Source: Candidatus Jordarchaeales archaeon
GTDB lineage: Archaea > Asgardarchaeota > Jordiarchaeia > Jordiarchaeales > Freyrarchaeaceae
Assembly: GCA_038858525.1 (NCBI GenBank)
Contig: JAWCFL010000005.1
Span: 9,192-73,191, forward strand
Direction: 5' to 3'
Length of the DNA stretch: 64,000 bases
Shown piece after piece: positions 3 to 54,407 of this stretch. The notes beneath the pieces are model-generated. The model saw only the letters and a program-made list of their open reading frames with translations. It did not search any database and was not told the DNA's origin. A program made the translations under genes and the position numbers. How positions within the stretch are numbered: position 1 is the first letter of the stretch; every line of letters starts with the position of its first letter.

Positions 3-302
3 TTACAGTCTAAGGGGGAGGCTGAAAAATTAAACGTGGATGCGATATTTATTGGTTTCCTAAAACGGATTGGGCTAAAAGCATCCCCTCTCCTGGTTAG
101 GTATGGAACGGGAGAAAACTTTTATCTAGAGGACTACGCTTTTCTTCGGGCTGTGGTAGAAGACAGAGAGGTTTACCCTGACTTTAGGCATGGAGTTGAG
201 GCACAAGAACTAGTAGAAGCAGCTTACATTTCAAGCAACAATAATGTTAGGGTAAGTCTCCCATTAAAAGAAAATAGGTTTAGAGAAACATTGCACTTCT
301 AG
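3..302 (+). CDS. C-terminal fragment of an oxidoreductase, possibly Gfo/Idh/MocA family; the reading frame is open to the window edge
   Basis: The frame has no stop back to position 3. The C-terminal tail '...GVEAQELVEAAYISSNNNVRVSLPL' resembles the C-terminal ends of Gfo/Idh/MocA oxidoreductases. Weak. Confidence 0.3.
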   Translation, partial: LQSKGEAEKLNVDAIFIGFLKRIGLKASPLLVRYGTGENFYLEDYAFLRAVVEDREVYPDFRHGVEAQELVEAAYISSNNNVRVSLPLKENRFRETLHF

Positions 303-5412: not shown

Positions 5413-5958
5413 GTGATCCGTGTGAAAGCCACTTTAGCAAGGCAAGTTTCACGCTTACTATTTCAACTGGAAGAGCAGGACATTCAACTTATCATACTGA
5501 AGTCCACGCCAAGGCTTGATCTAGGGGGGGATGAAGCCATAGGTCCCTTTAATGAGGGCGAAGTGGTCACGCTTCCAGCTTGGCAGGCGCTTCATTTGGT
5601 TAAAGCTGGACTAGCTAAATTCCGGAACGATGAACCTATCAACCTAGCTGAGCTTTACGATTGCCTTTGGAAAGAAGAGCGCCAAGCAGCACTACAACCT
5701 CTCCCGAAAAACTTCCTCCTCCGCCTAAGGTTCTTCATCGAAGCTTCTCCTGACGATGAAAAGAAGAAAATATCTTCAGTATTTAGGGATCTCATGTGTC
5801 GAAGACTAGAGAAAGTAGTTAAAGCAGCACTCAGGGCGAGGCAAAACATGAAAGCAACTGAAAACATGCTCCCCGAGGAAAAAGTGCTTTACTCTGAGCT
5901 CGCATCAAACATAAACGAGTGGCTAAGCGTGTTGCATAAGTTTTTAAACATAGAGTGA
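5413..5958 (+). CDS. gins23: GINS subunit, Gins23-like (B-domain N-terminal)
   Basis: 181 aa. The GINS B-domain motif 'VVTLPAWQALHLVKAGLAKF' lies in the N-terminal half. The stop overlaps the mcm start by 4 nt (ATGA), the gins23-mcm arrangement known from Sulfolobus. Confidence 0.55.
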   Translation: MIRVKATLARQVSRLLFQLEEQDIQLIILKSTPRLDLGGDEAIGPFNEGEVVTLPAWQALHLVKAGLAKFRNDEPINLAELYDCLWKEERQAALQPLPKNFLLRLRFFIEASPDDEKKKISSVFRDLMCRRLEKVVKAALRARQNMKATENMLPEEKVLYSELASNINEWLSVLHKFLNIE

Positions 5959-15108: not shown

Positions 15109-15951
15109 TTGCCTACTGGAGGGAGTGATTTGCGTTACGCTGTCAAGCTTGCATATATTGGCTCAAACTACTTTGGATTTCAGCGTCAGCCGTCAAAGAT
15201 TACTGTGGAAGCCGTCCTCCTCGAAGCGATGCGCAGAGCCGGACTGTTCTCCGACCCTAAGGAAGCTAGATATTCTTCTGCTGGGAGGACTGATAGAGGA
15301 GTTCACGCTTTAAGTCAGGTTGTTGCATTCAATTCAAATGCACCACTCTCCCTCCCAAGAATTAACGCTTTTCTGCCGATGGATGTGCGATGCTGGGCTT
15401 ACGCCTTTGTTCCTGATGATTTTAATCCAAGAAGGGATGCAATACTGAGAACTTACAAATACTATGTTGCTTGGAGGGGGGAAGATCTAGACTGCATGAA
15501 GGAAGCTGCATCACTACTTTTAGGGACGCATGACTTCAGAAACTTCTGTAAGCCTCGCAAAGGCGAGTCAACCATTAGGACACTAAACCAGGTTAGCGTC
15601 GAGGCACAGGGAAAATTACTGTGCTTCACCCTTTCAGCCAAGAGCTTCCTTTGGAGCATGGTGAGAAAGATAGTTTCCGTCTTACTCATGGTCGGGGCGG
15701 GATTAAAGAACGTCGACTTCGTCTCTTCACTCCTTAATCCTGACCTTAATCCAAGAGAAGGAATAAAGCCAGCTGACCCAGAGGGGCTAATACTCTACGA
15801 CATAGAGTATCCTTTCAGGTTTAAGGTATGTGAAAAAAGTAGAAAACTTCTCATAGACTATTTGAATAAGAAGCTTCACACTACTATTGCTCTTTCATCA
15901 GTCTACCATGCATTGATAGAAGGTATAACTACTAACTCAAGATTTTCTTGA
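15109..15951 (+). CDS. truA: tRNA pseudouridine(38-40) synthase TruA
   Basis: 280 aa. Catalytic 'AGRTDRGVHALSQVV', 'GTHDFRNF'. Confidence 0.85.
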   Translation: MPTGGSDLRYAVKLAYIGSNYFGFQRQPSKITVEAVLLEAMRRAGLFSDPKEARYSSAGRTDRGVHALSQVVAFNSNAPLSLPRINAFLPMDVRCWAYAFVPDDFNPRRDAILRTYKYYVAWRGEDLDCMKEAASLLLGTHDFRNFCKPRKGESTIRTLNQVSVEAQGKLLCFTLSAKSFLWSMVRKIVSVLLMVGAGLKNVDFVSSLLNPDLNPREGIKPADPEGLILYDIEYPFRFKVCEKSRKLLIDYLNKKLHTTIALSSVYHALIEGITTNSRFS

Positions 15952-17203
15952 CCTTTTCAGCGGCTTCCTTAGAGACTAAAAACTCAATAGCCTCTGGCTC
16001 GATGCCAAGCCATTTAACCAACTTTGCCCCAACCTCCGGGTTAGCCTCGATGATGAATTTAATGTAGGGGAGGTATGACAGAAAAGCCTCCTTAGAGGAA
16101 ACATGACACTTCTCACCTACCTTACTGGCTATGCCTCCCAGGGCGTTCCTTCTAGCTCTAGCAGCACTCATATCCTTCACCCAGCTTGGAAACTGGTATT
16201 TTGGCGCACCTCCTCCACTCGTCTCCCTTGAAAGAGAAACTCCTGCTGACATCAATGCGAAAACATACGATAGTAACCCCCAATGTTGCCTATTCCTTAT
16301 TCTTCCAAGAAACACATCTGCCCTAGAAAGAGCATTGTAGGCGTCTGCTAGCTCTTTGGGGTGCTGCATGTGCTGCCACGCGTTTTCGCACATCCACTGC
16401 ATGAGTAACTCGTAGTCCACATCAGACGAGGATGCCGCCATGATCATGCCCTGTGCACTCTTACCATAAAATATCGCTTTAAGCGTATCAAATACGCTTT
16501 TCTCTTGATCTCTCAATGAGAGAACACCCAAATCATCCATAGTTATGCTTCTCCTCCCCTCAGCCACCATTTGAAGGTCGTTGATAGCAGCCCTCAAATC
16601 ACCCTTAGCGTTTTCAGCTATTTTCTTTAGAACTAGCGGGTCAGCATCCACTCCTTCTCTTTCACATATCTTAGCCAAAACACTGGCCACCACGTTAGAC
16701 CTAATCCTATTGTACCTTATAAGTTCACAGAAATCCCTTATGGGAGCAAGCTTGGGGTCCCACGCATCATTGGCAACTAAGATAACCGGATAAACTGTCT
16801 TCTTCAGGATCTCTACAAGCCCACTTATGCCGCCCTTATCCTCGCTCCCGCTTATCCCGTCAACCTCGTCAACCAGAATAACTCTTTTTCCTCCCTTAAC
16901 CAGAGAAGAGAGAGAGGATGCTGCACCCACTGTCCTCCGGATTTCGTCTAAGCTTCTCTTGTCGCTTGCATTCACCTCTACCAAGTCATACCCTAATTCG
17001 TTAATTGCAGCATAAACCGAAGCCGTCTTACCCACGCCGGCAGGTCCCCAGAGGAGGAGCGCCTTAGGTTTCCGATCTGGGTGCCAGTTCAAGATAAACT
17101 CGACAACTCTCTCCGCCGCCTTCCTGTTCTCGACAACCTCACTTACTTTTCTTGGAGCATACTTTTCCGCCCAAAGTAATCTAGACATTTTTTCACCCAC
17201 CAA
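15932..17203 (-). CDS. rfcL: replication factor C large subunit
   Basis: 423 aa. '[12 protein letters not shown]', 'LVDEVDGI'. Overlaps rfcS at its start. Confidence 0.85.
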
Positions 17204-18167
17204 TCTGCGAGCCTACATAGGCGAACTTTGCAAGAAGAGCGCTGAGCTGAATCTCCTCATCCGCCCCCTCACTCATCCTGAAGTCTATTTCTCCGACAGT
17301 ATCCGCTAGCTGAGCCTTCCACCTCTCAGGAATATCTAAGTTGAAAAGTTCCCTATGTATCTGTCTGACAACATCTATTCCCGAGAGCCCATACGTTACT
17401 AAGAGGTCATGTAACTTTTTCCTAGCTTTCACAAAGTCCCCTTTAAGCGCTAGACCGATCATTTCGCGTACCTCCTCCGGCCTCGCCTTGCCAGTAACCA
17501 TGAAGACTGAGTCGGCTGTAACAGAGCCACCTATCGCTGCGGCCGCCTGGAGCGTGTTTATTGCACGCCGTAAGTCTCCTCCACACACGTAAAGGATCGC
17601 CTCTATACCGCTGTCATCCAGCATCACTCCTTCTCTCTCAGCTACGTAGAGAAGGCGCCTTGCCAAATCTTCCTTACTCAGGGGCGAAAACCTGAAAAGT
17701 GCGCACCTTGACTGTATTGGCTCAATTATCTTGCTGGAGTAGTTGACTACAAGTATGAACCTGCACGTTCTAGTGAAGCGCTCCATTGTTCTTCTCAAAG
17801 CTTGCTGTGCCTCTTGGGTGAGTGCGTCAGCTTCATCCAGCACCAGGATCTTAAAGGGTACTTCGCCGAGCGGCATTGTCCTAGCAAAATCCTTAACGAT
17901 GCCTCTGATCACATCGATGCCTCTCGCATCGCTCGCGTTAAGTTCCAGAAAGTTTCCTTGAAAATGCTCTCCGAAAAGATCATGAGCCAAACAAAGAGCC
18001 GCTGTGGTCTTGCCGGTGCCGGGCGGCCCTGAAAAAAGGCAATGAGGCATGTCCTTCTTCTCAACGAACGTCCGAAGCCTAGAGACGATCTCTGCCTGAT
18101 TCACTATCTCGCTCAGAGTTCTAGGCCTATATTTTTCAGTCCACATTAATGCTTCCTCGCTCGCCAA
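17193..18167 (-). CDS. rfcS: replication factor C small subunit
   Basis: 324 aa. '[12 protein letters not shown]', '[10 protein letters not shown]', and the SRC motif '[13 protein letters not shown]'. Confidence 0.9.
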
Positions 18168-21819: not shown

Positions 21820-21967
21820 TTCCTTTCCCTCCTAGTCGCTTACAGTAAGCGACACCATATTTTTTGAAGTTTCCTATCCGGAAATGCATCTGGATGCTTT
21901 TTTAGATAAACTTTAATTGTTTTCACGTTGAAAGATCATATCGGCTAAGTCCTCCCGGGGTGCTTTC

Positions 21968-22453
21968 TTGTCTAATGAGAAAAGATTCGAAATAGAAGTC
22001 GAAGCAGTAAAGACTCCGGTAGGTGACGTTCCAACAATCAGGACAGTCGAGAAAATAATTGAAGGAATGAACGTTTTAAGTGAAGACATGAGCGCCCTCT
22101 CACTTTCTTTCTCCGAATCATTGAAGCCTATTACTACTGAACTGAAAAGTGTCAAGAAGTTGATATCGAAAACTGCTGTTTCCTCTGAAGCGGCCATGGA
22201 GGCCGTTAAAAGACTGGAGCGAAAAATAGATCAACTTTCACAGGAGGAAGCTGAAAGGTGGAGTCGTCTCCAGCAAGTCCTTGCACTAATAACGGAAGCA
22301 CTTAAAGTGATTCACAGCGAAGTTAACGAGAAAACCAACAAGGCAACATCGAAAATTGACAAGCTAATAACTCTGCTAGCTCCCCCTCCACCCGCAAAAA
22401 GCACCCCGGCAAAGCCGGAGAAACAGGCGAAGCCCCTTAAAAAAGTTACTTAA
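21968..22453 (+). CDS. hypothetical helical protein (module A, X-type; paralog of 28252..29034)
   Basis: 161 aa. 'VGDVPTIRTVEKIIEG' and 'ESLKPITTELKSV' motifs are shared with 28252..29034. Pro/Lys-rich C-terminal tail. Confidence 0.5.
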   Translation: MSNEKRFEIEVEAVKTPVGDVPTIRTVEKIIEGMNVLSEDMSALSLSFSESLKPITTELKSVKKLISKTAVSSEAAMEAVKRLERKIDQLSQEEAERWSRLQQVLALITEALKVIHSEVNEKTNKATSKIDKLITLLAPPPPAKSTPAKPEKQAKPLKKVT

Positions 22454-23136
22454 TCTCTTTCTCCGCTGAACAGCGCCTCGTTAAGCCTCACCTTTTCTCC
22501 ATCCAACCTTACTATTCCCATCCTTTCCATCCTAGCCAAAAGGAGTCTTACTTGTCCCTCTGAAACCCCCATCGTCTTAGATAAGTCGCCTATCTTACAT
22601 TCTCCTATACTCTTCAAAATAAAATACGGCTTGTAATTAATATCACCTTCTATCAGCTTCTCAAGAGAACCTAGAACATCCTTCAACTTACTCTTCTCTC
22701 CCTCTAAACCGGAAACTCTTTCCTTCAAGTATGCGACTTCCCCTTCAAGTTCCCCTATTTTCCCCTCTCTGGTAAGTATCTCCCCCCTCAACCTTGAGAT
22801 CTCTGATCGAAGCGCTTCCTCGCTAAGCTTCTTATCCTCCTCAAGACGCCTAAATCTAAGTTTTTCCTCCTCAAGCAGCATCTCCAACTTCTTCTTCTCG
22901 CGAGAAACCTCCTCTATAGACTCCAACGCCTCCCTAAGCCTTTTAACCTCTGCCTCATGCTCTCTCCTAGCAGCATCAAACCTCGCCCTCCACTCCGCTA
23001 CCTCCCTCTCAAGCTCCTCTATACGCGCTCTCTGCCTCTCGATTTCCTCCCCCTGCCTCTCCAACCTAGCCTCTAAAAGCCTTAGAGCCTCCCTTTTTCC
23101 CTCAGGCTCCCCCAAGTAAACTCCCTCCATAAACAA
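22450..23136 (-). CDS. coiled-coil protein with a C-terminal winged-helix-like domain (module A, Y-type; paralog of 29365..30114)
   Basis: 228 aa. Long Glu/Arg/Leu-rich coiled coil. The C-terminal 'PYFILKSIGECKIGDLSKTMGVSEGQVRLLLARMERMGIVRL' resembles the tail of 29365..30114. Confidence 0.55.
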   Translation of the reverse strand: MFMEGVYLGEPEGKREALRLLEARLERQGEEIERQRARIEELEREVAEWRARFDAARREHEAEVKRLREALESIEEVSREKKKLEMLLEEEKLRFRRLEEDKKLSEEALRSEISRLRGEILTREGKIGELEGEVAYLKERVSGLEGEKSKLKDVLGSLEKLIEGDINYKPYFILKSIGECKIGDLSKTMGVSEGQVRLLLARMERMGIVRLDGEKVRLNEALFSGERD

Positions 23137-23237
23137 GAAGATCAGGTTGTCATGAGCTCTTCATCGTTTCCTCAGACTGGGACGGCGCCATCATCTCCAA
23201 AACTAAATATGCAGATAGCGATTTATAATTATCGTCT

Positions 23238-23591
23238 CTAGCGGTCAACTTGTATCTTAAGTTTTTCAACGGTTTCTCTCGCTTTCTTAATGCTTCCCGT
23301 AACTTTTTTTATGTCGGTCAAGATCGGCGTGCCCCTTATCTCTGAAATCATGCTTACTCCCGCATGGACTATATCGACGGTTTTATGCGTGCAGCGCAGT
23401 ATGCCGAAGCCCGACCGCTTATCGTAATCAATGACTTTCAAGTTCATGAAACTAACTCCAACTTCACCGAAAAGTTTGAGGAGCACGCTCCATAAGTCTC
23501 GAGCCACATCCTCGTATTCAAGCTCTTTATCGCTCATAATTTGGAAGACGATGTACCGCCATCTACCCTCAATCGATCTTACTCGACCCAA
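23238..23591 (-). CDS. rnp2: RNase P protein component 2 (Pop5)
   Basis: 117 aa. 'RWRYIVFQI...GILRCTHK' matches the Pop5 pattern. Adjacent to the Rpp30-like gene. Confidence 0.7.
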   Translation of the reverse strand: MGRVRSIEGRWRYIVFQIMSDKELEYEDVARDLWSVLLKLFGEVGVSFMNLKVIDYDKRSGFGILRCTHKTVDIVHAGVSMISEIRGTPILTDIKKVTGSIKKARETVEKLKIQVDR

Positions 23592-23611
23592 ACATCGTCA
23601 CTCCTTTAGCC

Positions 23612-24277
23612 TTACTCTTTTCTAAATCCCTCGTATCCTTTCCATTCCAGTATAGTTAAAGGATAGAAAGAAACCGCTCTGATCGCAGCCTCTCTAGGGA
23701 TCCCGAGGAGGCGCGCCACAGCAATGAGGCTTCCAGGAGAACGTAGCTCATACTCCATCTTCGGCTCTCTAGTTATGAAAAACACTGCTCCCTCCTCTAA
23801 CAGTACTGTGGCGGCCTTTCTGAGCGTTGAGAACGCTTGTGCGCGCTTTACCCCCTCGCACTCAAAGAGGGGAACCAGTGAGATCTCAACAGCGGTTCTT
23901 CCTTCATAGGAAAGCCTGACAAGCGACTTATCTAAGTACCTGTAATGCTCGATGGACGGAAAATAAATTATATCCACATCTGGATTTCGAGCGGCCCACG
24001 TAGCCACCTCCCTGTTTAAGCAAGGGACCGCCACTAGCTCTGCCTTCTCTCTTACTTCACCTAACATTTTCTTCATCTGGGCTAAGTTTTCCCCCTTAAG
24101 ATTTATTCTTGAGAAAACTTCAATCCCGTTAATTTTTCCTTCCCAACTTGTTATAAAAAGAACATTAAACCCTAATTTACTTGCGAACTCAAAAAAACGT
24201 TGTTGGGAAAATGCTGATCCGAGATGCACGTGTGTTTCAACAAATTTCAGTCTACGATTAAGTTGTGCCTCCTGCAT
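23612..24277 (-). CDS. rnp3: RNase P protein component 3 (Rpp30, PHP/TIM-barrel fold)
   Basis: 221 aa. 'VETHVHLG' metal motif. Conserved neighbourhood with Pop5 and L15e. Confidence 0.65.
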   Translation of the reverse strand: MQEAQLNRRLKFVETHVHLGSAFSQQRFFEFASKLGFNVLFITSWEGKINGIEVFSRINLKGENLAQMKKMLGEVREKAELVAVPCLNREVATWAARNPDVDIIYFPSIEHYRYLDKSLVRLSYEGRTAVEISLVPLFECEGVKRAQAFSTLRKAATVLLEEGAVFFITREPKMEYELRSPGSLIAVARLLGIPREAAIRAVSFYPLTILEWKGYEGFRKE

Positions 24278-24684
24278 GCCTCACGTATCTCCTCAAGTTC
24301 TCTAAAAGAGAACTTAACTTTGACCTTAACGACGTCCTCGTAATCGCTTAAGTGCACCTCTCCCAGATACGCCTTCTGCTTGTCAAAACGGAGGTAAAGG
24401 TTTCCATGCCCGTTATGCCTTAAATCTAGTTGCCCCCCCAGTCTCTTCCTATCTTCCTCCCTCATCAAGGAAGCTAGCCGGTCAACAACTTCTTTGGCTC
24501 CCTTTCCAGATAACTTTACTCTATAAATTATCACTTCATTACCGTAGTGTCCTCTAACTTTCTCCCTTTTGACTTCTCCTTTATTGTCTAAGAGAAAAAG
24601 TAGCGCCTTCAAAACTTTTTCAGGATCCTCTGTTGAGTGAACAAAGGCTTCAAACTCCACGCTAGATAGTTCCTCATCACCCAA
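24247..24684 (-). CDS. COG1325-like predicted RNA-binding protein of the exosome superoperon
   Basis: 145 aa. Positioned between L15e and Rpp30 as in archaeal exosome superoperons. The family call is by context. Confidence 0.4.
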   Translation of the reverse strand: MGDEELSSVEFEAFVHSTEDPEKVLKALLFLLDNKGEVKREKVRGHYGNEVIIYRVKLSGKGAKEVVDRLASLMREEDRKRLGGQLDLRHNGHGNLYLRFDKQKAYLGEVHLSDYEDVVKVKVKFSFRELEEIREACRRHNLIVD

Positions 24685-24698
24685 TCTTCCACACCAGT

Positions 24699-25298
24699 TT
24701 ACTCGTAATACTTCTCACGACTTGGCCTAACCTTCTCAGCGCCCTTCCCCTTATTCCTCAGCGCCCTCGCCCTCTTACCGCTGCCCGTAAGTCCTCTGAA
24801 CACTCTGCCACGATGTGCTCTACCACAGATCCAGTTTATTTTCGGGTCGGACTTTATAACTGGATGATGTGGGTCAACTAGGATGACTTCGAACCACTTC
24901 CACCTGCCATCTTCTCCAACATAGTACGAGTTTAAGACCTCCATGTTTGGGTACTTGCGAGCGGCTCTCTCTTCAGCGATCCACTGAAGGTTTTTTCCAG
25001 GTGTCTTTTTCGCTACACCCAACCCCTTTGGCTTCCTTCCGCTCCTAGGCCTAGCTTTCCTCAATCCTCCTTTACGAATCCGAACCCTAACCACGACGAA
25101 GCCTTGCTTAGCCCTGTAACCAAGTCTTCTCGCTCTATCTGGCCTAGTAGGTCTCTCCACCCTCACTATAACAGGTTGCCTGCGCCAGAGCGTCAGCCTC
25201 TCACGTAGAAATTCCTTTAAATTGCCTTCCTTTCCCACTATCTGCCTCCAGCTTTCTGAAAGGTAACTGTACATCGACTTCACCATTTCTAAGTCCAC
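24699..25298 (-). CDS. rpl15e: 50S ribosomal protein L15e
   Basis: '[29 protein letters not shown]...[22 protein letters not shown]' is diagnostic of L15e. Confidence 0.85.
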
Positions 25299-25664
25299 TC
25301 CCAGAATAACTTCGGCTAAAAGCCTATTTTCCCATACAATAATTTCCTTTTATAGTTTACCGTCACCAGAAGGAACAAGCACGCCGAAAGGAAAAATATT
25401 CCGGTTGCTTTTCTCTTTAATCCTTTAAATAACACGCCGTTGATGAACTTACTTATTGTGACAGTGATCCTAGGTTTTTCAGACATTTCTTTCAAGAACT
25501 TAAGCTCCAGCTCACCTCTCCAATGCTAATGAATTCTTCTCGAGACATGCTATCATCCTTACGGGTTTCCAAAAAAGTGAAATATGCGCTTGATTACTTA
25601 TTTTATTGTTCTTGTTTCTCTCTAACATATTTTGGGGTTTTCAGGGCGTTTGGAGATGGTTTAA

Positions 25665-26372
25665 ATGCCGGTACTGAAATTCTTTGGGCATGCGTCCTTC
25701 AAGCTGTCATCTCCGAAGGTTAGCGTGCTCTTAGACCCTGGCTACTTCGAGGGGAGACCATTAGTCGGAGAGAACGAAAAGGTTAACGTTATATGCGTTA
25801 CCCACAATCACCCAGACCATTTGGGGAATGCAGCTAAGATCGCAGCCTCTCAAAAAGCCTTTGTCGTGGGAGCAAGCGAGGTTATTGAGAAGCTGAAAGT
25901 AGAAGGAGCACCGGAGTGGCTTCTTCGCCCTCTTAACCCAGGGGAAAGCTTTGTTAGGCCAGAAATAAAGGTGACCGCCATAGACCTCAAGCATGGGCCA
26001 CCTAAGTCTCCATCACCCATCCAGCACTTAGCCTTTCTCGTGGAGCTAGGAAAAGTCAAACTGGTCCATTTAGGCGACGCTGGAACCAGAGGGCTCCTAG
26101 GGCAATACCAAATAGACGTACTCCTAATAGGCGTTGACGAAACCGAGACGTTCCCACCCGTACAAGCCCTCCAAGCGGTAAGTGACCTAAAACCCAAAAT
26201 GGCTATACCGATGCACGTCAGGAAAAAGGAGGAACTCGATTACTTCGAGGAACACTTCTCCTTAATGGCCCCTGAGGTTAAGTACAAGCGCATGAACGCG
26301 GGCGAGGAAATAATAGTAGAGTGGGCTGCTGGAACAGAATTTACTTTTAAACCATTGCCGCGTGAAGCATAG
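25665..26372 (+). CDS. metallo-beta-lactamase-fold hydrolase
   Basis: 235 aa. 'VICVTHNHPDHLG' H-x-H-x-DH motif. Confidence 0.75.
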   Translation: MPVLKFFGHASFKLSSPKVSVLLDPGYFEGRPLVGENEKVNVICVTHNHPDHLGNAAKIAASQKAFVVGASEVIEKLKVEGAPEWLLRPLNPGESFVRPEIKVTAIDLKHGPPKSPSPIQHLAFLVELGKVKLVHLGDAGTRGLLGQYQIDVLLIGVDETETFPPVQALQAVSDLKPKMAIPMHVRKKEELDYFEEHFSLMAPEVKYKRMNAGEEIIVEWAAGTEFTFKPLPREA

Positions 26373-26461
26373 TGATCTTTGAAGGTCTTTGCAGTAATAG
26401 TTAAATATTCTCAATTTTATACTCTTTTTTTGCGTAAAAATGAATTAGGAGGAAGCAACTT

Positions 26462-28243
26462 TTGAGTGAAGCCCTAAAAGTCGTCATAGACTTGTCGGAG
26501 AAAGTTGACTGCGTTCTCTCAGGAGACAATAAGGTGAAATCGATATCCGCGAAGGGAACTCTTACGGTGAAAAATCCAAGCCGGAGGAATAAGGTCTGGA
26601 GTTGCGAGCTGCAGCTAGGAGGAGTTTCTTCTACGTCGCTGAAGGAGGAACGTTACGATGTGGGTGAAGTCCCCGCTGGAGGCACATGGACACTTGAGTA
26701 TAATATTCCGGTCAGTAGCCCCCTAATCAGCCTTAAAGAAACAGTCGACACTTACCCCAAGGACAGTGCAATCAACTGGGCTGTCGCCTTCAATCGTGTC
26801 ACACCGGTAAGGTGCATCATAACACTCACGAATCCCAGCGATATATTCGCCAGAAACATAGAAGTAAGGAAAAGAATACCAAAGGGTTTTGGTGACCCAT
26901 CAATAGAACCACCCCAAACAGGTTCAGCAGAATATGTCTCTGAGACTAGAGAGGTCATATGGAGAGGATTCGACCTAGCTCCCGGAGCTGAGGCAACACT
27001 GGCCATAAACATGGCCGTAAAACCTGAAGAAGTAAAGCCCATTGGGGCGGGAGAAGTAAAACTCACCTACCAAATTGTGGGCAGCACGGCTTCATCTCTC
27101 ACTCCAGACCTCTACTGTATTTCTGATTTACGTTTCGGTGTTGAGCCGGCTGAATCTCTGTCCAAACCGAACTTTTGGGATTGCACTCTGGAGTTCCTTA
27201 ACACCAGCGACTTCATGGAATTACTGCTAGACGTTGAAATGAGTTTGGTTTCTGACGGAAGAAGCCCGGCGTTGTCATTGTCTCCAAACGTGGAATTGCT
27301 ACCTCACCAATCTTGGTCCTATACGTTTCAAGTTGAAAGCCCCGAACTACCTGTTTTCGAAACAAAATTCAATTATAGAGTCGCTTACGAGGTTAAAAGA
27401 AGCGTGTACACAACAGTGGTCAAGGAGGAAACCTTGCTTCCCGTCATGAAGGTGGAGGCAGAAAAAATATTCGCACCAGCTGAGGTCGACGCCTACGATA
27501 AGACACCCATGAGCGTCACAGTGAATGTTTTCAATGTTGGAAGCGCCGAGCTGGATGCGGTATCCATCATAGATACTGTTCCCGAAGACTTTAGAGCCCC
27601 AACCTCAGACAAGATAAAAATTACTCTAGGGGATCGAGAAATCACTAGTGGGGTAACAATAGCCTTGGAGCCGCCGTCAGCACCTATAGAGCAATCTAAA
27701 ACACTGAAGATAGCCGTAGCTGGGCTAAGTAAAATAGGCGGCTTCAAGCCTGGCCAAACAATGAAAGTGTTTTATCCTGTTGTTGCCTGGGGGCCTAAGC
27801 CGAAGGGTAAATATCTCGCTCCTCTAAGGGTGACGTGCAACATTTCACCTCCAGGACTGGAAGGAGAATTTCTAAGGCTTGAGGAAATCCCACCGGCGAT
27901 CGAAGTGAAGTACGCCAGAAGAGCTGTGAAGATCTTCAAGGAATCTATAACTCCAGGAGCCGAGAAAAATCAATACATAGTTCCTTTAATCATAGTAAAT
28001 TCTGGAGAAGTAAACATAGAGAACGTCACTGTGAAGGACTTTGTTCCCCCTGGATTCAAACTGGTTTCATGGAAGCCTGAAGAGCTCCAGCCGAAAGTGG
28101 AGGAAACGCCAGACGGGCTGGTACTATCATGGCTTTTCGTGAGAATTGAACCCAAGCAAGAAATACAGTTCTCCTACGTCATAGAGGGAAGCGGACGCTA
28201 CGTCAGGAAGGAGCCGCAAATAACTATAGGACCTTTGACGTAA
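26462..28243 (+). CDS. large hypothetical protein (593 aa), likely multi-beta-domain
   Basis: Long TTG-initiated ORF with strong coding signal. No recognisable catalytic motif. Confidence 0.5.
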   Translation: MSEALKVVIDLSEKVDCVLSGDNKVKSISAKGTLTVKNPSRRNKVWSCELQLGGVSSTSLKEERYDVGEVPAGGTWTLEYNIPVSSPLISLKETVDTYPKDSAINWAVAFNRVTPVRCIITLTNPSDIFARNIEVRKRIPKGFGDPSIEPPQTGSAEYVSETREVIWRGFDLAPGAEATLAINMAVKPEEVKPIGAGEVKLTYQIVGSTASSLTPDLYCISDLRFGVEPAESLSKPNFWDCTLEFLNTSDFMELLLDVEMSLVSDGRSPALSLSPNVELLPHQSWSYTFQVESPELPVFETKFNYRVAYEVKRSVYTTVVKEETLLPVMKVEAEKIFAPAEVDAYDKTPMSVTVNVFNVGSAELDAVSIIDTVPEDFRAPTSDKIKITLGDREITSGVTIALEPPSAPIEQSKTLKIAVAGLSKIGGFKPGQTMKVFYPVVAWGPKPKGKYLAPLRVTCNISPPGLEGEFLRLEEIPPAIEVKYARRAVKIFKESITPGAEKNQYIVPLIIVNSGEVNIENVTVKDFVPPGFKLVSWKPEELQPKVEETPDGLVLSWLFVRIEPKQEIQFSYVIEGSGRYVRKEPQITIGPLT

Positions 28244-28251
28244 CCCCCCAC

Positions 28252-29034
28252 TTAATCCTTCCTCTTTAGCTTATTTATTCTCTCCTCTATTTCCTTCTTT
28301 TCTCTTAGCTTAAGACTCAGAATCTCTTTTTCTTTAACTCCCCCAAGCCCCGTCTCAATCAAACTTTGTAAACTTAAAATTTCTCCATTAAGTTTAACTA
28401 GTCTTGTCTCAAGCCGAGCTATCTCCTTTAACCTTTCAACATCATCGTTAGTTGAAATAGAGACGGGTGTCTTCTCCTCCTTCATAACCGCCTCATTTTT
28501 CTGGACAGCCGCATCCTTCATGCTTACAAAGACGTTGGCTTGCTCTTGGACACCCATGTTTTTCTTTTGGACTCTAACGTCTTTGTTCTCTTCAAGCACC
28601 CATTCTTCCCCTACTACGCCCTCCCCCTCAACTTTGCCTTCTCTCGCTGAGGTGAGCGAAGCGAATCGTCTCTCTAGACTTATGAGGCTTTCATTCAGCA
28701 TCCTTAACTGATCACGAAGCATAAGTACTTCTTTCATCATGCTAAGTTTAAAATCCGCTACTTCCTTCCCCATTCTCACGACAGCATCCTCAACCTTTTC
28801 CACTCGCTCTAAGACTGGCTTTAAGTCCCCAGAAGCATCCTTAGCTTCCTCCACAAGATAACCGATCTTTGTCATGTATTCCAAGACCGGCTTCAAAGCT
28901 TCCCTGAATGCCGCCACTATTTTTTCGATGTTCTTACTGATCAGTATTTCTCCAAGCCCACTTATGATGGCGTCAATGTCTCCTACAGTTACCTTACCCG
29001 AATCCGCCGAGTTCACATTGTCCCCTCCGAACAT
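28252..29034 (-). CDS. hypothetical helical/coiled-coil protein (module B, X-type; paralog of 21968..22453)
   Basis: 260 aa. 'VTVGDIDAIISGLGEI', 'EALKPVLEYM' and 'DLKPVLERVEKV' motifs. Coiled-coil C-terminus. Confidence 0.5.
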   Translation of the reverse strand: MFGGDNVNSADSGKVTVGDIDAIISGLGEILISKNIEKIVAAFREALKPVLEYMTKIGYLVEEAKDASGDLKPVLERVEKVEDAVVRMGKEVADFKLSMMKEVLMLRDQLRMLNESLISLERRFASLTSAREGKVEGEGVVGEEWVLEENKDVRVQKKNMGVQEQANVFVSMKDAAVQKNEAVMKEEKTPVSISTNDDVERLKEIARLETRLVKLNGEILSLQSLIETGLGGVKEKEILSLKLREKKEIEERINKLKRKD

Positions 29035-29364
29035 GCCTTTCTCAACAGTAATGAATTAACTTCAAATAACTTGTTGTAGAATTCTACTATTAATATTTTG
29101 TTTCCGCTTACAGTTTTTCCGTAAGCCTTAACTCAATAGTATGAGAATACAACTGATCTTCCAGATAAAGAAAACAACATTCGTAATTTAACATGAAATT
29201 TAAATATAACTTGGCATTTTTCCAGTTCTTTCCTGAATAGAATTGGCAATTTGTCTATTCATTAAAGTGTATTTTCCATTTTAAACCCTATTTTTTTGAG
29301 AGAAAAACGATTATTAGCCTAAAATGGCAAAAGTATAATTGCACCTATCTTCAAGTTAAATTTA

Positions 29365-30114
29365 ATGGTGAGTTGCATGACGGCTTCACAGCAAACGCCG
29401 CCTCAAAACGAAGAATCAGGCTTTAAAAATCAAAAGATAGTTGAATTGCTCGCGCCGGTCAGAGAGCAAGTTATCCGCTGCATCTTGGCAAGGTTCCCTA
29501 TGCGTGGATTAGAACAAATACTCCGTGAGACATTTGACAGTGCGGTTATCGAAAACATGATGCTTTTCTCCAGCCTCATTAACTCTGCCACTCAAGAAGG
29601 GGGTGGAGAGCTAAATGAGCACCAACTAAGAGAGAAACGGGAAGAAAAGCAGTTAAAGGCGGCAATGCTGGAAGCTAAAGAACTCTTGAGGAATCCCTCC
29701 TCAGAGAGTGAAGAGAGAGAAGAATCATTAAAAGAGGACCTTTCACGTTTAAAGAAGGAGATTGATCGCTTAATTCTTGAGCTGAAAATTAAAGATAGAA
29801 AACTTAGGAGGCAGGAGAAGCTTTTAGAGAAATTGCGTGCAATCGCTGAAAACGGGCTGGTTATACCTGTCCTCGAGAATAATTTGCCGTCTAACCCTGA
29901 AATTATTTCATTCTGGAAACGTGTAAGTGATTTCCTGGAGAAGGATCCGAAGTTCAAAATTCTACGTCTTCTTTTGAGTGTGAAAGAAGCTACCGTAAAC
30001 GGCATTTACCAGTCAGTTGGAACGCAGAGAGAAATGGTAGCGAAATGTCTTGAGGAGATGAAAAACGCGAACCTAATAAAAGTTACAGGGGAAAGCATAA
30101 GTCTGAACTTATAG
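29365..30114 (+). CDS. coiled-coil protein with a C-terminal winged-helix-like domain (module B, Y-type; paralog of 22450..23136)
   Basis: 249 aa. Coiled coil 'REKREEKQLKAAMLEAKELL...'. C-terminal 'PKFKILRLLLSVKEATVNGIYQSVGTQREMVAKCLEEMKNANLIKV'. Confidence 0.55.
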   Translation: MVSCMTASQQTPPQNEESGFKNQKIVELLAPVREQVIRCILARFPMRGLEQILRETFDSAVIENMMLFSSLINSATQEGGGELNEHQLREKREEKQLKAAMLEAKELLRNPSSESEEREESLKEDLSRLKKEIDRLILELKIKDRKLRRQEKLLEKLRAIAENGLVIPVLENNLPSNPEIISFWKRVSDFLEKDPKFKILRLLLSVKEATVNGIYQSVGTQREMVAKCLEEMKNANLIKVTGESISLNL

Positions 30115-30115
30115 C

Positions 30116-30442
30116 TCACCGTTGTCCTCTAACCTTAAGTTGGTTAAGCGGTATTCTGTAAGCTCCTTCCCTATCTGATACTATAGGTGGAGCACCCTTA
30201 AAAAGGGCTTCAAGGTCTATTTCAAATACTCCTCTATGCAGAATTCTTACAGTTTCTACCTTCTCCCTATTTTGCCTTATTGGAAGCAGGTTCTTTTCTT
30301 CCTCCCTTTTTTCCTCCTCTTTTCCTTCGCGCACGAGTTTGAAGACGTTAGAACCACATGCCGGGCAGCTCAGCTTGCTGTACCCTTCAGGTATCCTTTC
30401 GCCACATGCTACACAGACGTTGTAGAAGTTCACTTCGTGCAC
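30116..30442 (-). CDS. Zn-ribbon protein (gene 3 of the GTPase triad)
   Basis: 108 aa. 'CVACGERIPEGYSKLSCPACGS'. Confidence 0.55.
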   Translation of the reverse strand: MHEVNFYNVCVACGERIPEGYSKLSCPACGSNVFKLVREGKEEEKREEEKNLLPIRQNREKVETVRILHRGVFEIDLEALFKGAPPIVSDREGAYRIPLNQLKVRGQR

Positions 30443-30747
30443 CCCGCCACGTACATCAGGGATATAAAGTCTCCTTCCTTTGTTACCGCCACAATGTCGG
30501 ATGGCGCTACAACGGTTATTTTGCCCCCTTTCTTCTCTCCATTAAAAGTGATCACTTCTATCCCGTTAAACTCCTTGAAGTCGATCTCCAGCATGGTTTC
30601 CTTTATGAGTTCAGCTTGCTCCTCGGGTTTCAGCCTCTCCTCCAAAACAAGTATACTTTTTCCCTTCACTCTCTCAATGATCATTTTAACCTTATCATTG
30701 GGGCTTAATCTCCTAGTAACCTTCTCGGAGATTATATCTATCTTCAA
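30430..30747 (-). CDS. small conserved hypothetical protein (gene 2 of the GTPase triad)
   Basis: 105 aa. Translationally coupled (overlapping) with the flanking genes. Confidence 0.5.
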   Translation of the reverse strand: MKIDIISEKVTRRLSPNDKVKMIIERVKGKSILVLEERLKPEEQAELIKETMLEIDFKEFNGIEVITFNGEKKGGKITVVAPSDIVAVTKEGDFISLMYVAGCTK

Positions 30748-30760
30748 GGCGTCACTCCTC

Positions 30761-31366
30761 CTAGCAGGACTCCGCTATTGCCTTGTAAAGCTCCTCCATA
30801 TTGTCTCCCCGGAGGGCGGATACACATACAACCTTGTAGCCTGGGAAAGATTCCCTTATAAGTTCAGGCCGAGCCTCTGGAAGGTCGATCTTGTTTGCGA
30901 CGAGGATCGTCGGTATCCTCTTAGCCTTCAAATTCCCTAGTATTATGAGGTTAACTTGGTCAAAGGGAACTTTTGTCGCATCAAAAACCGTTAAAGCTAG
31001 GTCTATGTTGTCGAGCCACTGTATGGCCTCTATGACACCACGCGTGGCCTCCTTAGCTCTCTCTACAGCCTCCTCCTCATTCAATCCGTATTTCATGAAG
31101 TCTCTATAATCTACCTTGCTAGCTATTCCCGGCATGTCAACTAGGTCTACGTTAACTCCCTTGCCGTTAAACCTTATGTTAACCTGTCTAGCAATAGTCG
31201 CCTTTCTTGTCTCGTGAGGTATAGGCGATACGGTGCCAATCTCAACACCCAAAAAATCCAAGGATATTCTGTTGGCAAGTGTTGTCTTACCTGCATTGGG
31301 CGCCCCATAAACCCCTAAAACTAAGCTCTGCCTCTTCTTAAGCATCCTCGAAATCTTGTCGAGCAA
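30761..31366 (-). CDS. small GTP-binding protein (Era/EngB-like P-loop GTPase)
   Basis: G1 'GAPNAGKTT', G3 'DMPG', G4 'ANKID', G5 'SAL'. Confidence 0.75.
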   Translation of the reverse strand: MLDKISRMLKKRQSLVLGVYGAPNAGKTTLANRISLDFLGVEIGTVSPIPHETRKATIARQVNIRFNGKGVNVDLVDMPGIASKVDYRDFMKYGLNEEEAVERAKEATRGVIEAIQWLDNIDLALTVFDATKVPFDQVNLIILGNLKAKRIPTILVANKIDLPEARPELIRESFPGYKVVCVSALRGDNMEELYKAIAESC

Positions 31367-31510: not shown

Positions 31511-32032
31511 TTGTCGAGGAAGAAGATGGTACGGCTAGCTTTCCTTTTTCTCGTTGCCGCATCCTTTATCGCCGGGCTAATTCCAACTGGATTAGCTTCC
31601 TTACTAGGGCTCAATGCAACAAAAATATACTTCGCTCCGTTAAACCAATCAGTTGAACTTCCACCCCCATGGGATACCTTCTACTACTCTTACCCTGTAG
31701 TCCTTAGCTATAACGGATACATGCTAGACCTTAACGTGATCCTAATAGTGGACGTAAGGAAGGGATCCCCATACGGAGAACTTGCCGGTGACCATAGTTT
31801 TGCATACGACGTAGCCCTGTTCATGCAGCCCGGAAGCGTGAGGCTTTTGAACATCTCCCTCACTGTTCCCGCATCTGAGATCGAAGCAGCAGCTAAGGGT
31901 AGCCCTCTCTGGATGACCGTAACCACCGTGGCGTGGTTCACCAGTTGGTTCATGGGAAGCATCCAAATCATAACGCCAACCATTATTAGAACCGTTATAC
32001 CATTACATTTGCTGCTTGCAAAGGAGGGATAA
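31511..32032 (+). CDS. secreted or membrane-anchored hypothetical protein
   Basis: N-terminal signal/TM segment 'LAFLFLVAASFIAGLIPTGLA'. Confidence 0.45.
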   Translation: MSRKKMVRLAFLFLVAASFIAGLIPTGLASLLGLNATKIYFAPLNQSVELPPPWDTFYYSYPVVLSYNGYMLDLNVILIVDVRKGSPYGELAGDHSFAYDVALFMQPGSVRLLNISLTVPASEIEAAAKGSPLWMTVTTVAWFTSWFMGSIQIITPTIIRTVIPLHLLLAKEG

Positions 32033-32034
32033 CC

Positions 32035-32487
32035 ATGAAGGATCAGCTCAATAGGCCCGCTGTGAGAGCTTTCCTCGTGGCGTCCTTAACATTTCTCTCG
32101 ACGGCTGTGGCACCAGCCCTAGGAAAGAGCCTCGCAGAACAGCTCAACTTATTCATTCAACTTCTGGATCCACTCCTAATAGGAGCAATAGGCACCCTTA
32201 TGAGCGTCATCGTCTTCTTGGACAACTTCTTCCGCCGCTCAAAACCTGCTCTGAGCGGGGTTCTAGGCGCACTTAACAACCTTGTCGGTTTAATCTATCT
32301 GCTGGTCTTCGCCGAGATGCTAACCAGCATAAACATACCTGTAATGCAGATTCTCTACAGCTCTTTAACTTTTGTAACCATAAATTATCAGCCAGTAATT
32401 AGCCTCGCCATAATAGCGTTCGCCACCAGGATGTTACGGCACTCCTACCAAATACTTTTTCACGAGCAATTAAAAGAAACACTCTAG
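32035..32487 (+). CDS. small polytopic membrane protein
   Basis: 150 aa with about four hydrophobic helices. Directly follows 31511..32032. Confidence 0.45.
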   Translation: MKDQLNRPAVRAFLVASLTFLSTAVAPALGKSLAEQLNLFIQLLDPLLIGAIGTLMSVIVFLDNFFRRSKPALSGVLGALNNLVGLIYLLVFAEMLTSINIPVMQILYSSLTFVTINYQPVISLAIIAFATRMLRHSYQILFHEQLKETL

Positions 32488-32564: not shown

Positions 32565-33950
32565 ATGGGGGGTTACGGGTTGGTGGAGATCAAAGAAATC
32601 CTCCCTGGACGCTTCGAGAGGATAGGAGCCCACTCCCACATAAAGGGGCTTGGGCTACGTGGGCTCAAAGCTGAATTAGTTGCTGACGGTATGGTTGGCC
32701 AAACCGAGGCAAGGGAAGCGGCGGGCATAGTGGTCAGAATGATAAGAGAAGGCAAAATGGCTGGAAGAGCTGTGCTTCTAGCGGGTCCACCCGGAACAGG
32801 CAAGACCGCTATCGCCATTGCCATAGCCAAGGAGCTCGGGCCTGATGTTCCAGTCGTGATGATCACGGGGTCAGAAATATATTCTGAGGAGATCAAGAAG
32901 ACAGAGATCCTGACGCAAGTGATGCGGAAAGCGATAGGCGTCAGGATACATGAAATGAAGAAGATATACGAAGGTGTCGTCAAGAGCTTGGATGTGACTA
33001 TGGCCAAAAACCCCTACAACCCGTACCAGCAGGTCCCTCAGTCAGCAAAAGTAACCATTGCTACGAAGGACGAGTCGAAGACGTTCGAGGTTGGACAGAC
33101 GATAGCTATACGCCTGATCAATGAAGGCGTCAGCGTGGGCGACGTCATAATGATAGATGCAGAAACAGGCAGGGTTACCCGCCTCGGAAAGGCTGAGTCA
33201 CCTGAAGTCAAGCGGTATGACATAGAAGCGGAGAAGCCCATTCCGGTTCCAACAGGTCCCATACTGAAGGAAAAGGAGTTCGTTTACACGTTAACCCTCC
33301 ACGACCTCGACGAGATAAACGCTAGGAGAAGTAGCTTTTCAATATTCAGCATATTCGGAGGCGGAAGAGAAGAGAAAGAGATCGATCCTGAGATACGAGA
33401 AAGAGTAAATCAAATGGTGAAAAGCATGGTCGAAGAGGGACGGGCGGAGATACTGCCAGGCGTCTGCTTCATCGACGAAAGCCACATGCTCGACATTGAA
33501 GCATACAGCTTCATAGCCAGAGCAATGGAGTCTGACCTAGCGCCAATAATAATACTCGCGTCGAACAGGGGCTTCACTAAGATAAGAGGAACAGAGCTGG
33601 TGTCACCACACGGAATGCCACTCGACCTGCTAGACAGGCTCCTCATAATAAACACTCGGCCATACAACGAGGAGGAAATCAGGGAAATACTCAAAATAAG
33701 AGCAAAGGAAGAAAAGATAGAGATAGAAGAGGAAGCCCTAGAATACCTAACCCAAATAGGGGTAAAGACTAGTCTCCGTTACGCTGTGCAGCTCCTAACG
33801 CCAAGCATGGAACATGCTAAAGAGGCGGGACACAAGAAAATAACTAAAGAAGATGTGCAGTGGGTGGAGAAACTCTTCGCCGATGTCAAGCGCTCAGCTA
33901 ACTATGTGAGAAACCTAGAAAGAGAATTCATGATTTCAGAGCCAGCATAA
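32565..33950 (+). CDS. TIP49 (RuvB-like 1/2) AAA+ ATPase
   Basis: 461 aa. 'HSHIKGLGL', Walker A '[11 protein letters not shown]', an inserted OB-like domain, Walker B 'FIDESHMLD'. Confidence 0.85.
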   Translation: MGGYGLVEIKEILPGRFERIGAHSHIKGLGLRGLKAELVADGMVGQTEAREAAGIVVRMIREGKMAGRAVLLAGPPGTGKTAIAIAIAKELGPDVPVVMITGSEIYSEEIKKTEILTQVMRKAIGVRIHEMKKIYEGVVKSLDVTMAKNPYNPYQQVPQSAKVTIATKDESKTFEVGQTIAIRLINEGVSVGDVIMIDAETGRVTRLGKAESPEVKRYDIEAEKPIPVPTGPILKEKEFVYTLTLHDLDEINARRSSFSIFSIFGGGREEKEIDPEIRERVNQMVKSMVEEGRAEILPGVCFIDESHMLDIEAYSFIARAMESDLAPIIILASNRGFTKIRGTELVSPHGMPLDLLDRLLIINTRPYNEEEIREILKIRAKEEKIEIEEEALEYLTQIGVKTSLRYAVQLLTPSMEHAKEAGHKKITKEDVQWVEKLFADVKRSANYVRNLEREFMISEPA

Positions 33951-35598: not shown

Positions 35599-35670
35599 AG
35601 CACACACGAAGCCAACCGAGAAAACCAAACTCTCCAGCAAAACAATCACTCAACAAACAAGAACAAATAG

Positions 35671-35755
35671 CGGCCCCGAGGGGATTCGAACCCCCGACAC
35701 CCGGCTTAGGAGGCCGGTACCCTCTCAGAACACATCCTGGCTGGGTTACGGGGCC
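35671..35755 (-). tRNA. tRNA-Arg(CCU) with a ~10-nt insertion in the D-arm (non-canonical intron)
   Basis: Reverse complement GGCCCCG-UA-...-CCGGC-CUCCUAA-GCCGG-GUGUC-GGGGG-UUCGAAU-CCCCU-CGGGGCC-G. Perfect 7-bp acceptor and anticodon CCU. The D region is ~10 nt too long. Confidence 0.75.
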
Positions 35756-35855: not shown

Positions 35856-35952
35856 GCGGGCGTAGTCCAGCCTGGTCTAAGACGTCGGCCTGCCACGCCG
35901 AGGACCCGGGCGGCTAACACAAAGCCAGGGACTTCAAATCCCGGCGCCCGCA
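35856..35952 (+). tRNA. tRNA-Gly(GCC) with a 22-nt intron at the T-stem/T-loop junction (53/54)
   Basis: Acceptor GCGGGCG/CGCCCGC. Anticodon arm UCGGC-CUGCCAC-GCCGA. T-stem CCGGG (35906-35910) and CCCGG (35940-35944) with the UUCAAAU loop at 35933-35939. The 22 nt at 35911-35932 are intervening. Confidence 0.75.
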
Positions 35953-45107: not shown

Positions 45108-45689
45108 ATGGAAGAGACAAATACTCTTAAAGAAACCGTTAAAGAACTAGACCAATCGGCAAAGCTGATAAGAGACCTCGTATCCAACCTTATAAAGCTG
45201 AGGCATAGCCTCCTAAAAGCATACTCGGGCCTCAGTAAACTCTTAGAGGAACCCGAACTCATGAAGCCAGCAGCCCCCTCACCTACGCCTCTACCCGCGC
45301 CCCCCTCGCCTCCGACACCCACCCCTCAACAAGCCGAGGAAGCCCCTTCAACTCCTCCCGCAACTGCAGTTCTCCCTGTACAGCCTCCAGTCGCTCCTCC
45401 CACGGCACCCCACGCAGTTGAGGAGGTTCTCGTTGAAGGAGAAATGGCTAATTTCGTAACAGCTTTCTCGGGGTCAATAAAGTCTGACCCGCATGTTTCC
45501 AATGTCATCAAAAAACTAAATGAGTTTAAAGAGAAAATTGAGAAAAAATACGTTTACCACCCTGTTCTTTCAGAGGTCAAGCTAGCTATTTCGAAGCTCC
45601 AAGGCATGCCTGGGGATAGCGTGCTGAGCGAGAGTGACGTGAATGAAATTCTGAGAAAACTTTCGAACTGGGTTTCCCGGCTTTCATAG
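45108..45689 (+). CDS. hypothetical protein with a long Pro/Ala/Thr-rich linker
   Basis: 193 aa. A helical N-terminus, 'PSPTPLPAPPSPPTPTPQQAEEAPSTPPATAVLPVQPPVAPPTAP', and a helical C-terminus. Confidence 0.45.
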   Translation: MEETNTLKETVKELDQSAKLIRDLVSNLIKLRHSLLKAYSGLSKLLEEPELMKPAAPSPTPLPAPPSPPTPTPQQAEEAPSTPPATAVLPVQPPVAPPTAPHAVEEVLVEGEMANFVTAFSGSIKSDPHVSNVIKKLNEFKEKIEKKYVYHPVLSEVKLAISKLQGMPGDSVLSESDVNEILRKLSNWVSRLS

Positions 45690-54393: not shown

Positions 54394-54407
54394 AACAATC
54401 TCTCCCT

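Follow-up and report, generated by a model that had tools for sequence, protein, structure and literature searches.

Two pairs of neighbouring genes encoding coiled-coil winged-helix and helical-hairpin proteins, confined to the Asgard class Jordarchaeia

Two pairs of neighbouring genes of a Candidatus Jordarchaeales archaeon, a member of the Asgard lineage, combine known domain types in an arrangement that is confined to one Asgard class, the Jordarchaeia. They were studied in a stretch of 64,000 nucleotides of contig JAWCFL010000005.1, referred to here as the window. One member of each pair, named Y, is a coiled-coil protein with a C-terminal winged helix-turn-helix (wHTH) domain, and the other, named X, is a helical-hairpin protein; A and B designate the two modules. 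All four genes are real and under purifying selection, and profile alignments identify the two Y proteins as paralogues. As a tentative model, Y would bind nucleic acid as a dimer and X would be its helical partner. An archaeal signal recognition particle RNA is present in the window, and the nearest homologues of all four proteins are annotated as Jordarchaeales or Freyarchaeota. The genes are the following:

21968-22453 (+), XA, open reading frame (ORF) of 161 aa
22450-23136 (-), YA, 228 aa as an open ORF and 221 aa from the TTG at 23115
28252-29034 (-), XB, 260 aa, or 254 aa if the start is at 29016
29365-30114 (+), YB, ORF of 249 aa

These four ORFs and their layout had been described in an initial annotation of the same DNA, and we found both as described. 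Module A is convergent and overlapping, the stop codons of XA and YA having TTAA (22450-22453) in common, and module B is divergent around an AT-rich spacer of 330 bp. The upstream neighbours of module A are L15e, PF01877, Rpp30 and Pop5, with the module behind Pop5. Module B is flanked, according to Pfam, by the gene of a 593-aa protein and by a triad of GTPase, OapB and OapC genes; YB is convergent with the last of these, arvC, with a 1-nt gap. The order in the block is TIP49 - two small proteins - arvA-arvB-arvC - YB / XB - 593-aa protein - MBL hydrolase - L15e - PF01877 - Rpp30 - Pop5 - YA / XA. The most likely start of YA is the TTG at 23115 rather than 23136, since a GGAGG lies 8-12 nt upstream of it and the starts of the orthologues, which all begin with MGE(P/T)EG, agree with it. 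XB may start at 29016.

The comparison took in five Jordarchaeum-type assemblies together with Ca. Freyrarchaeum guaymaensis. Orthologues of matching length were present for XA, YA, XB and YB in every related genome retrieved (n = 6). The ratio of nonsynonymous to synonymous substitution rates (dN/dS), calculated against the nearer orthologues, was 0.08-0.19 for XA, 0.15-0.17 for YA, 0.21-0.24 for XB and 0.10-0.11 for YB. These values are similar to those of Pop5 and ArvC (0.15-0.23), and those of ArvA and L15e were lower (0.04-0.06). It is on the orthologues in every genome, together with the dN/dS of 0.08-0.24, that the four ORFs are considered real genes.

Synteny is conserved as well, both pairs lying in one block that is intact in the Jordarchaeum-type assemblies and in Freyrarchaeum, apart from the 593-aa and MBL genes, which are absent in one Jordarchaeum lineage (L006/L007). 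In Freyrarchaeum the TIP49-to-XA block is uninterrupted despite different genes on both flanks, and XA remains with YA where the flank changes, both pairs persisting across the break in synteny. The 4-nt overlap of the XA and YA stops is kept in all Jordarchaeum-type genomes. No member of the four families was found beyond the Jordarchaeia in three word-indexed searches and an exhaustive search with hidden Markov models; GTDB was also scanned (at least one locus). Among 1.84 billion proteins, the exhaustive search yielded seven matches to XB, of which six belong to Jordarchaeia and one is a false positive with tetratricopeptide repeats.

The domain organization of the Y proteins, as read from their sequences, is as follows:

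22453-22647 (approximate; -), YA wHTH, C-terminal, after about 155 residues of heptad coiled coil
YB residues 23-75 (approximate; +), conserved N-terminal helical domain with an RFPMRGLEQ motif, extra relative to YA
YB residues 96-160 (approximate; +), coiled coil
29920-30111 (+), YB residues 186-249, C-terminal wHTH

The best PDB sequence matches of the Y coiled coil are the parallel coiled coils of GCN4 type, BST2 and gp26, and the enrichment at heptad positions a and d peaks just ahead of the winged helix (wH). A superimposable C-terminal wH had been recognized in the initial annotation, and all 13 sequences of YA and YB indeed align without a gap over their last 64 residues. In Pfam searches the tail matched TrmB in 13 of 13 members, MarR in 11 of 13 and MarR_2 in 10 of 13 (best E values 9.5e-6 to 7e-5). 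The best PDB matches were a Crp/Fnr-type protein (9day, 1.3e-4) and MarR (3nrv, 2.8e-4), followed by the wH of CdvB (2xvc, 5.5e-4, rank 3 of 93) and, further down (E to 1e-2), by Lrp, eS25 (E = 0.008), Lrs14 and SmtB. On these matches the tail is identified as a wHTH of the MarR/TrmB/ArsR class, at superfamily or class level only. No single Pfam family can be assigned to the tail of the window YA, as its scores are under the curated gathering cut-offs (HTH_5 20.1 vs 22, TrmB 17.1 vs 25.6, MarR 17.4 vs 24.6).

Compared by BLASTP, YA and YB gave a marginal match (E = 4e-4). By hhalign the match was 88.5% (P = 2.7e-6), and 92.1% over 111 columns (P = 6.3e-7) when the Freyrarchaeum orthologues were included, the aligned region comprising the final part of the coiled coil along with the tail. 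The hhalign score of 46.3 lies about 11 standard deviations above that of block-shuffled targets (16.0 ± 2.8). In HMMER searches of the window YB was not the top match of the YA profile, and an eS25-like ORF and a PadR-like tail scored similarly; we attribute this ranking to the composition correction, which penalises the coiled coil. As the tail by itself is an ordinary wHTH at the domain level, the assignment of YA and YB as true paralogues rests on their common architecture together with the profile match.

The top non-self HMMER match of the YA profile (E = 0.011) is a 193-aa orphan at 45108-45689 (+), matched through coiled-coil similarity. Both of its termini are helical and are joined by a Pro-rich linker of about 60 residues, and it belongs to no Pfam family.

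The X proteins were described from an alignment of eight XA sequences, from the XB orthologues and from AlphaFold2 models, whose reliability is given as predicted local distance difference test (pLDDT) values:

XA N-terminus (+), short beta-hairpin with an invariant KTPxGxVPT motif (alignment and model)
XA residues 24-67 and 73-137 (+), two helices (model, pLDDT 64)
XA tail (+), Pro-rich and basic (net +5), ending in an invariant KPLKK at 22430-22444 (alignment)
XB residues 17-63 and 72-133 (-), two helices (model, pLDDT 50-67 outside the C-terminal hairpin)
XB residues 134-195 (-), variable, acidic and disordered linker
28264-28449 (-), XB residues 196-257, highly conserved C-terminal antiparallel helical hairpin (model, pLDDT ~89)

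The XA and XB models thus have the same build of two long helices, of nearly equal lengths. Pfam, NCBIfam, PDB-sequence and Foldseek searches placed X in no family; neither protein type had been assigned to a known family before, and the first three of these searches gave no curated family for Y either.

Several comparisons point to a relationship between the two X proteins. XA and XB gave a BLASTP E value of 4e-5 in a single comparison, and among 431 ORF segments of the window they were each other's best non-self HMMER matches (E = 0.007 and 0.011), with a 100-fold gap to the next-best ones (E = 1.0 and 1.7). Their hhalign score of 28.1 was above all of 100 shuffles (15.2 ± 2.9, maximum 23.9), and the reversed target gave 22.2. 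A common origin of XA and XB is no more than plausible. The initial annotation had called the two pairs paralogous modules. This description holds for neighbouring pairs of the same build with paralogous Y proteins, and it is only partly supported, as it needs homology of the X proteins, which is plausible only. The VGD and LKP motifs, formerly taken as marks of the X proteins, did not withstand comparison with the orthologues: LKP is replaced by LKS, LKH or LNL in those of XA and by LNP, VKP or ITP in those of XB, which also have no VGD.

About 25 residues (~44-70) are extra in the window XB and in its close relatives; they duplicate an 'LKPVLE...KV' motif and are missing in three distant orthologues (P0009, P0017 and P0018). 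LKP therefore occurs twice in the window XB.

These features can be brought together in a model which we prefer, with considerable reserve. Y would homodimerise through its parallel-type coiled coil, and the latter would place two compact wH domains of the MarR/TrmB class side by side at its C-terminal end. The paired domains would then bind a nucleic-acid duplex, most likely DNA, a ligand suggested by the side-by-side geometry of the two domains. X, as a long antiparallel helical hairpin, might pack on the Y coiled coil as a partner or modulator, and the basic Pro-rich AKP/KPLKK tail of XA might contact nucleic acid or the wH. With the same reserve, the YA/YB duplication would be old, preceding the split between Jordarchaeum and Freyrarchaeum. 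In favour of this model, an X-type gene adjoins a Y-type gene twice. The class of the tail with its matches to DNA-binding regulators, the parallel coiled-coil matches of Y, the like helix lengths of XA and XB, the kept stop overlap of XA and YA and the persistence of this pair in Freyrarchaeum also count for it.

Other observations weigh against it. The Y wH domains are only mildly basic (net charge +1 and +2), the protein-binding wH of CdvB scores almost level with the DNA-binding regulators, and eS25, an RNA-binding wH, is also among the matches. Neither a conserved palindrome or operator near YB nor a motif common to the promoters of both modules was found. The hhalign match between XA and XB reaches only 11-14% (P = 0.0019-0.0027), does not gain from more divergent orthologues, and is no stronger than that of a coiled-coil control, XB against YA (P = 0.0025). 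Finally, the genomes are all collinear over the entire TIP49-to-XA block, and adjacency is for this reason weak evidence of a coupling between X and Y.

The last two points also form the basis of an alternative that we consider somewhat improbable, namely that there is no functional module at all. X and Y would be unrelated lineage-specific helical proteins in a frozen housekeeping block, and the likeness of XA and XB would be noise arising from helices or composition, as its equality with the XB-YA control would suggest. The lack of conservation of the VGD and LKP motifs is in line with this, as are the unlike orientations of the two modules and the separate transcription of X and Y in each pair. 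Nor can the co-occurrence of X and Y be judged independently, since none of the families was found outside the class. On the other hand, a gene of the same unusual build adjoins each of two true Y paralogues, and noise does not readily account for the reciprocal best matches of XA and XB with their 100-fold gap, for a score above all shuffles or for the nearly identical helix lengths. The conserved stop overlap of XA and YA, and the persistence of XA with YA where the flank changes, likewise argue against mere residence in a frozen block.

A further alternative concerns the neighbours of module B. Three pieces of context go beyond the initial annotation: the identity of the triad, dealt with here, the C/D-box small RNA (sRNA) directly upstream of YA, described below, and the class-restricted families described above. 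The 'GTPase triad' is the OapABC operon, now named ArvABC, a vesiculating-GTPase operon:

26462-28243 (+), 593-aa beta-sandwich protein (DUF11/CLIPPER in Pfam), abutting XB
30116-30442 (-), arvC (OapC; Pfam OapC)
30430-30747 (-), arvB (OapB; Pfam OapB)
30761-31366 (-), arvA (GTPase, OapA; Pfam MMR_HSR1)
31511-32032 and 32035-32487 (+), two small proteins, possibly of the membrane to judge by eye from their hydrophobic stretches

In Haloferax the ArvABC operon drives the formation of extracellular vesicles (PMC10927574). According to Mills et al., only 8 of 183 Asgard genomes contain ArvA, and only ArvB and ArvC are listed there as its conserved partners (PMC10927574). In all Jordarchaeia loci examined arvABC is kept, and module B abuts arvC in every genome including Freyrarchaeum. 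The two small proteins, which have no Pfam family, are divergent from arvA and occupy the same position in all loci. The 593-aa protein reached 30.8 bits with the adaptor-complex mu-homology model (Adap_comp_sub; cut-off 31.6), its orthologues show the same faint match, and no PDB sequence match was found for it. In the Freyrarchaeum locus (L010) a small GTPase of the Arf/Ras family is encoded at 4328-4867 (-), beside TIP49 and at the edge of the conserved block; it is not present at that position in the Jordarchaeum-type loci.

With these neighbours, the pairs could be building blocks of a system resembling the endosomal sorting complex required for transport (ESCRT), or of vesicle budding. 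Y would be an adaptor similar to ESCRT-I/II or CdvB, X a wH-bound partner similar to ESCRT-III, the steadiness box or CdvA, and module B would remodel membranes jointly with ArvABC, the 593-aa immunoglobulin (Ig)-like protein and the two small candidate membrane proteins. We regard this as unlikely. Archaeal ESCRT systems are built from coiled-coil proteins, CdvB/Vps22-like wH proteins, unplaceable helical hairpins and Ig-like adaptin-appendage proteins, and wH genes adjoin ESCRT-III-like genes in their loci (Makarova et al., PMC11188069). Module B and its neighbours match this list of components, beside a vesiculation GTPase that is rare among Asgard genomes and from whose operon module B is not separated in any genome compared. 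The rank of the CdvB wH among the matches of the Y tail and the near-threshold mu-homology score of the 593-aa protein point in the same direction, and the Foldseek matches of XA include Snf7 and the hairpin of CHMP4B, those of XB the headpiece of ESCRT-I.

The fold matches of X are not significant, however: all E values are at least 0.6, those of XA to CHMP4B and Snf7 are 3.5-6.4, and generic hairpins do equally well. Member-wise Pfam scans of X and Y (E ≤ 10) detected no Snf7, ESCRT-II or steadiness-box signal, and PDB profile searches with X or Y yielded no ESCRT-III chain. CdvA (PF18822), one family among 112 of coiled-coil type, was matched by only 3 of 8 XA members (best E = 0.0057) and by no XB. 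Membership of X in the ESCRT-III, CdvA or steadiness-box families was accordingly rejected, the three kinds of search having returned only generic coiled-coil and hairpin noise. No Vps4 or Snf7 gene is present among the scanned ORFs of the window and the conserved block, the window being part of the genome. Judged from the sequence, the Y wing appears complete, with two segments that look like strands (IVRL-DGEK-VRL), whereas the wH of CdvB is broken. The surroundings of module A offer no link to membranes or GTPases, and one lineage does without the 593-aa gene. In addition, no X- or Y-like gene was found near three more distant arvAB loci (39-41% ArvB identity), so the adjacency of X/Y and arvABC is restricted to Jordarchaeia and co-occurrence across lineages is not borne out. 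A more specific version, in which arvABC, YB, XB, the 593-aa protein and the two small candidate membrane proteins would form a self-contained GTPase-driven budding machine, with Y and X as scaffold and adaptor in place of the ESCRT-I/II/III or coat proteins of other systems and module A as a second, specialised copy, seems to us highly doubtful.

The intergenic regions next to the two Y genes contain the following elements:

23139-23198 (-), putative sRNA of the C/D-box type in the Pop5-YA interval; boxes C, D', C' and D are present, as is a guide of 12 nt
23221-23235 (approximate; -), TATA-like box upstream of the sRNA
29035-29364, AT-rich spacer with the divergent promoters of XB and YB and conserved blocks beside each start

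The 60-nt sRNA element is near-invariant in six genomes including Freyrarchaeum. All of its top Rfam matches are C/D-box families, and snoPyro_CD matches it over the full length (19.9 bits, E = 0.038), under the gathering score. Similarity of the D' guide, CGCCGUCCCAGU, to that of Giardia GlsR4 (Rfam alignment) points to an rRNA target that has been conserved. The Shine-Dalgarno sequence and start of YA lie 15-25 nt downstream of the sRNA, and the two probably have a common promoter, since the TATA-like box lies upstream of the sRNA. Upstream of YB we noted a BRE/TATA-like core, AAAGAAAAAC-ATTATTA. A candidate operator upstream of YB, the inverted repeat CCATTTT-N35-AAAATGG, shows a compensatory change in one locus (L008) and was rejected, as it is absent in another (L001) and in Freyrarchaeum. 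The idea that the AT-rich spacer is a replication origin beside the 'origin-associated' oap genes was also discarded, its conserved parts being promoter-like; among the scanned window ORFs there is no Orc1/Cdc6 (GINS, MCM and RFC are present), no search having been aimed at origin recognition box repeats. In the divergent spacer between M50 and XA a hairpin, GTCGCTTACAGTAAGCGAC, was seen at 21835-21853 (+); changes in its arms in one locus (L003) preserve the pairing, but Freyrarchaeum, with its different flank, has no conserved counterpart of it.

It is very improbable, in our view, that Y is an RNA- or ribonucleoprotein-associated protein with an RNA-binding wH like that of eS25, module A working with the RNase P, C/D ribonucleoprotein and ribosomal genes. 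YA does lie directly downstream of L15e, PF01877, Rpp30 and Pop5, with an apparent promoter in common with the sRNA, and eS25 is among the tail matches. That match is weaker, however, at E = 0.008, than those to DNA-binding regulators at 1e-4, no RNA-processing genes surround YB, and archaeal C/D sRNAs commonly sit beside unrelated genes.

Elsewhere in the window the following features were noted:

5413-8045 (+), 15932-18167 (-) and 32565-33950 (+), replication and chromatin genes (GINS-like/MCM, RFC, TIP49)
35670-35755 (-), tRNA-Leu(GAG), found by ARAGORN
35856-35952 (+), 97-nt tRNA match in Rfam, unreported by ARAGORN and possibly containing an intron
52624-57027 (-), carbon monoxide dehydrogenase/acetyl-CoA synthase genes (two CdhD-family ORFs and CdhC)

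In the first group the GINS-like protein has an Sld5 domain and is encoded directly upstream of MCM, in a cluster with the large and small subunits of RFC and the TIP49 (RuvB-like) ATPase. The last group is consistent with Wood-Ljungdahl metabolism.

Should X and Y be nucleic-acid-binding scaffolds, as in the model that we prefer, they would be chromatin or regulatory proteins specific to one class, and their general interest would be modest. If module B did work with ArvABC and the Ig-like neighbour, a vesiculating small GTPase would be linked to ESCRT-like blocks in an Asgard lineage. An Arf/Sar-like GTPase would then be coupled to building blocks of ESCRT type in a system that has no Vps4, and this would bear on the assembly of membrane-trafficking machinery before eukaryotes. 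Either way, these are conserved and constrained orphan genes that lie within the information-processing core of an Asgard class about which little is known.

Among known systems, the regulators of the MarR, TrmB, ArsR and Crp types are closest to the Y tail, as they provide its best Pfam and PDB sequence matches. Many of them dimerise via helices beside the wHTH. Unlike MarR/TrmB-type regulators, Y carries its wHTH as the last 64 residues, behind a coiled coil of 65-155 residues, and has no ligand-binding or canonical dimerisation domain.

The Cdv system offers a likeness for both proteins. We take CdvA to consist of a PRC barrel, a helical hairpin and a C-terminal wH-binding peptide, and CdvB of an ESCRT-III core followed by a C-terminal wH. 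The Y tail matches the wH of CdvB (PDB 2XVC), as given above, and XA is reminiscent of CdvA in its layout, in which a small beta element precedes a helical hairpin and a Pro-rich linker leads to an invariant peptide at the C-terminus. In contrast to CdvB, Y has no Snf7 signal or ESCRT-III core, and both wing-strand segments appear to be present in its tail. X differs from CdvA by the lack of a significant CdvA signal and of a PRC-barrel match, and XB also by the lack of the terminal peptide. Vps4/CdvC, a further component of that system, is not among the scanned window ORFs. X also resembles the thaumarchaeal arCOG08707 and the steadiness-box hairpin of ESCRT-I, being made of antiparallel helical hairpins without a detectable sequence family. 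This likeness has no sequence support, and the ESCRT-I headpiece among the fold matches of XB (E 2-3) does not surpass designed hairpins, the linker of topoisomerase I or the arm of SerRS.

The archaeal ESCRT-like loci with arCOG11741 and arCOG09748 (PMC11188069) were compared by their description only. These loci are defined by their linkage to Vps4 and ESCRT-III, neither of which was found among the scanned window ORFs, and Y, unlike their proteins, is confined to Jordarchaeia. In its build Y is nevertheless like arCOG11741 and arCOG09748, in which a terminal wH comes after a helical or coiled-coil region, and its gene likewise lies beside that of a helical-hairpin protein, with an Ig-like adaptin-related protein nearby.

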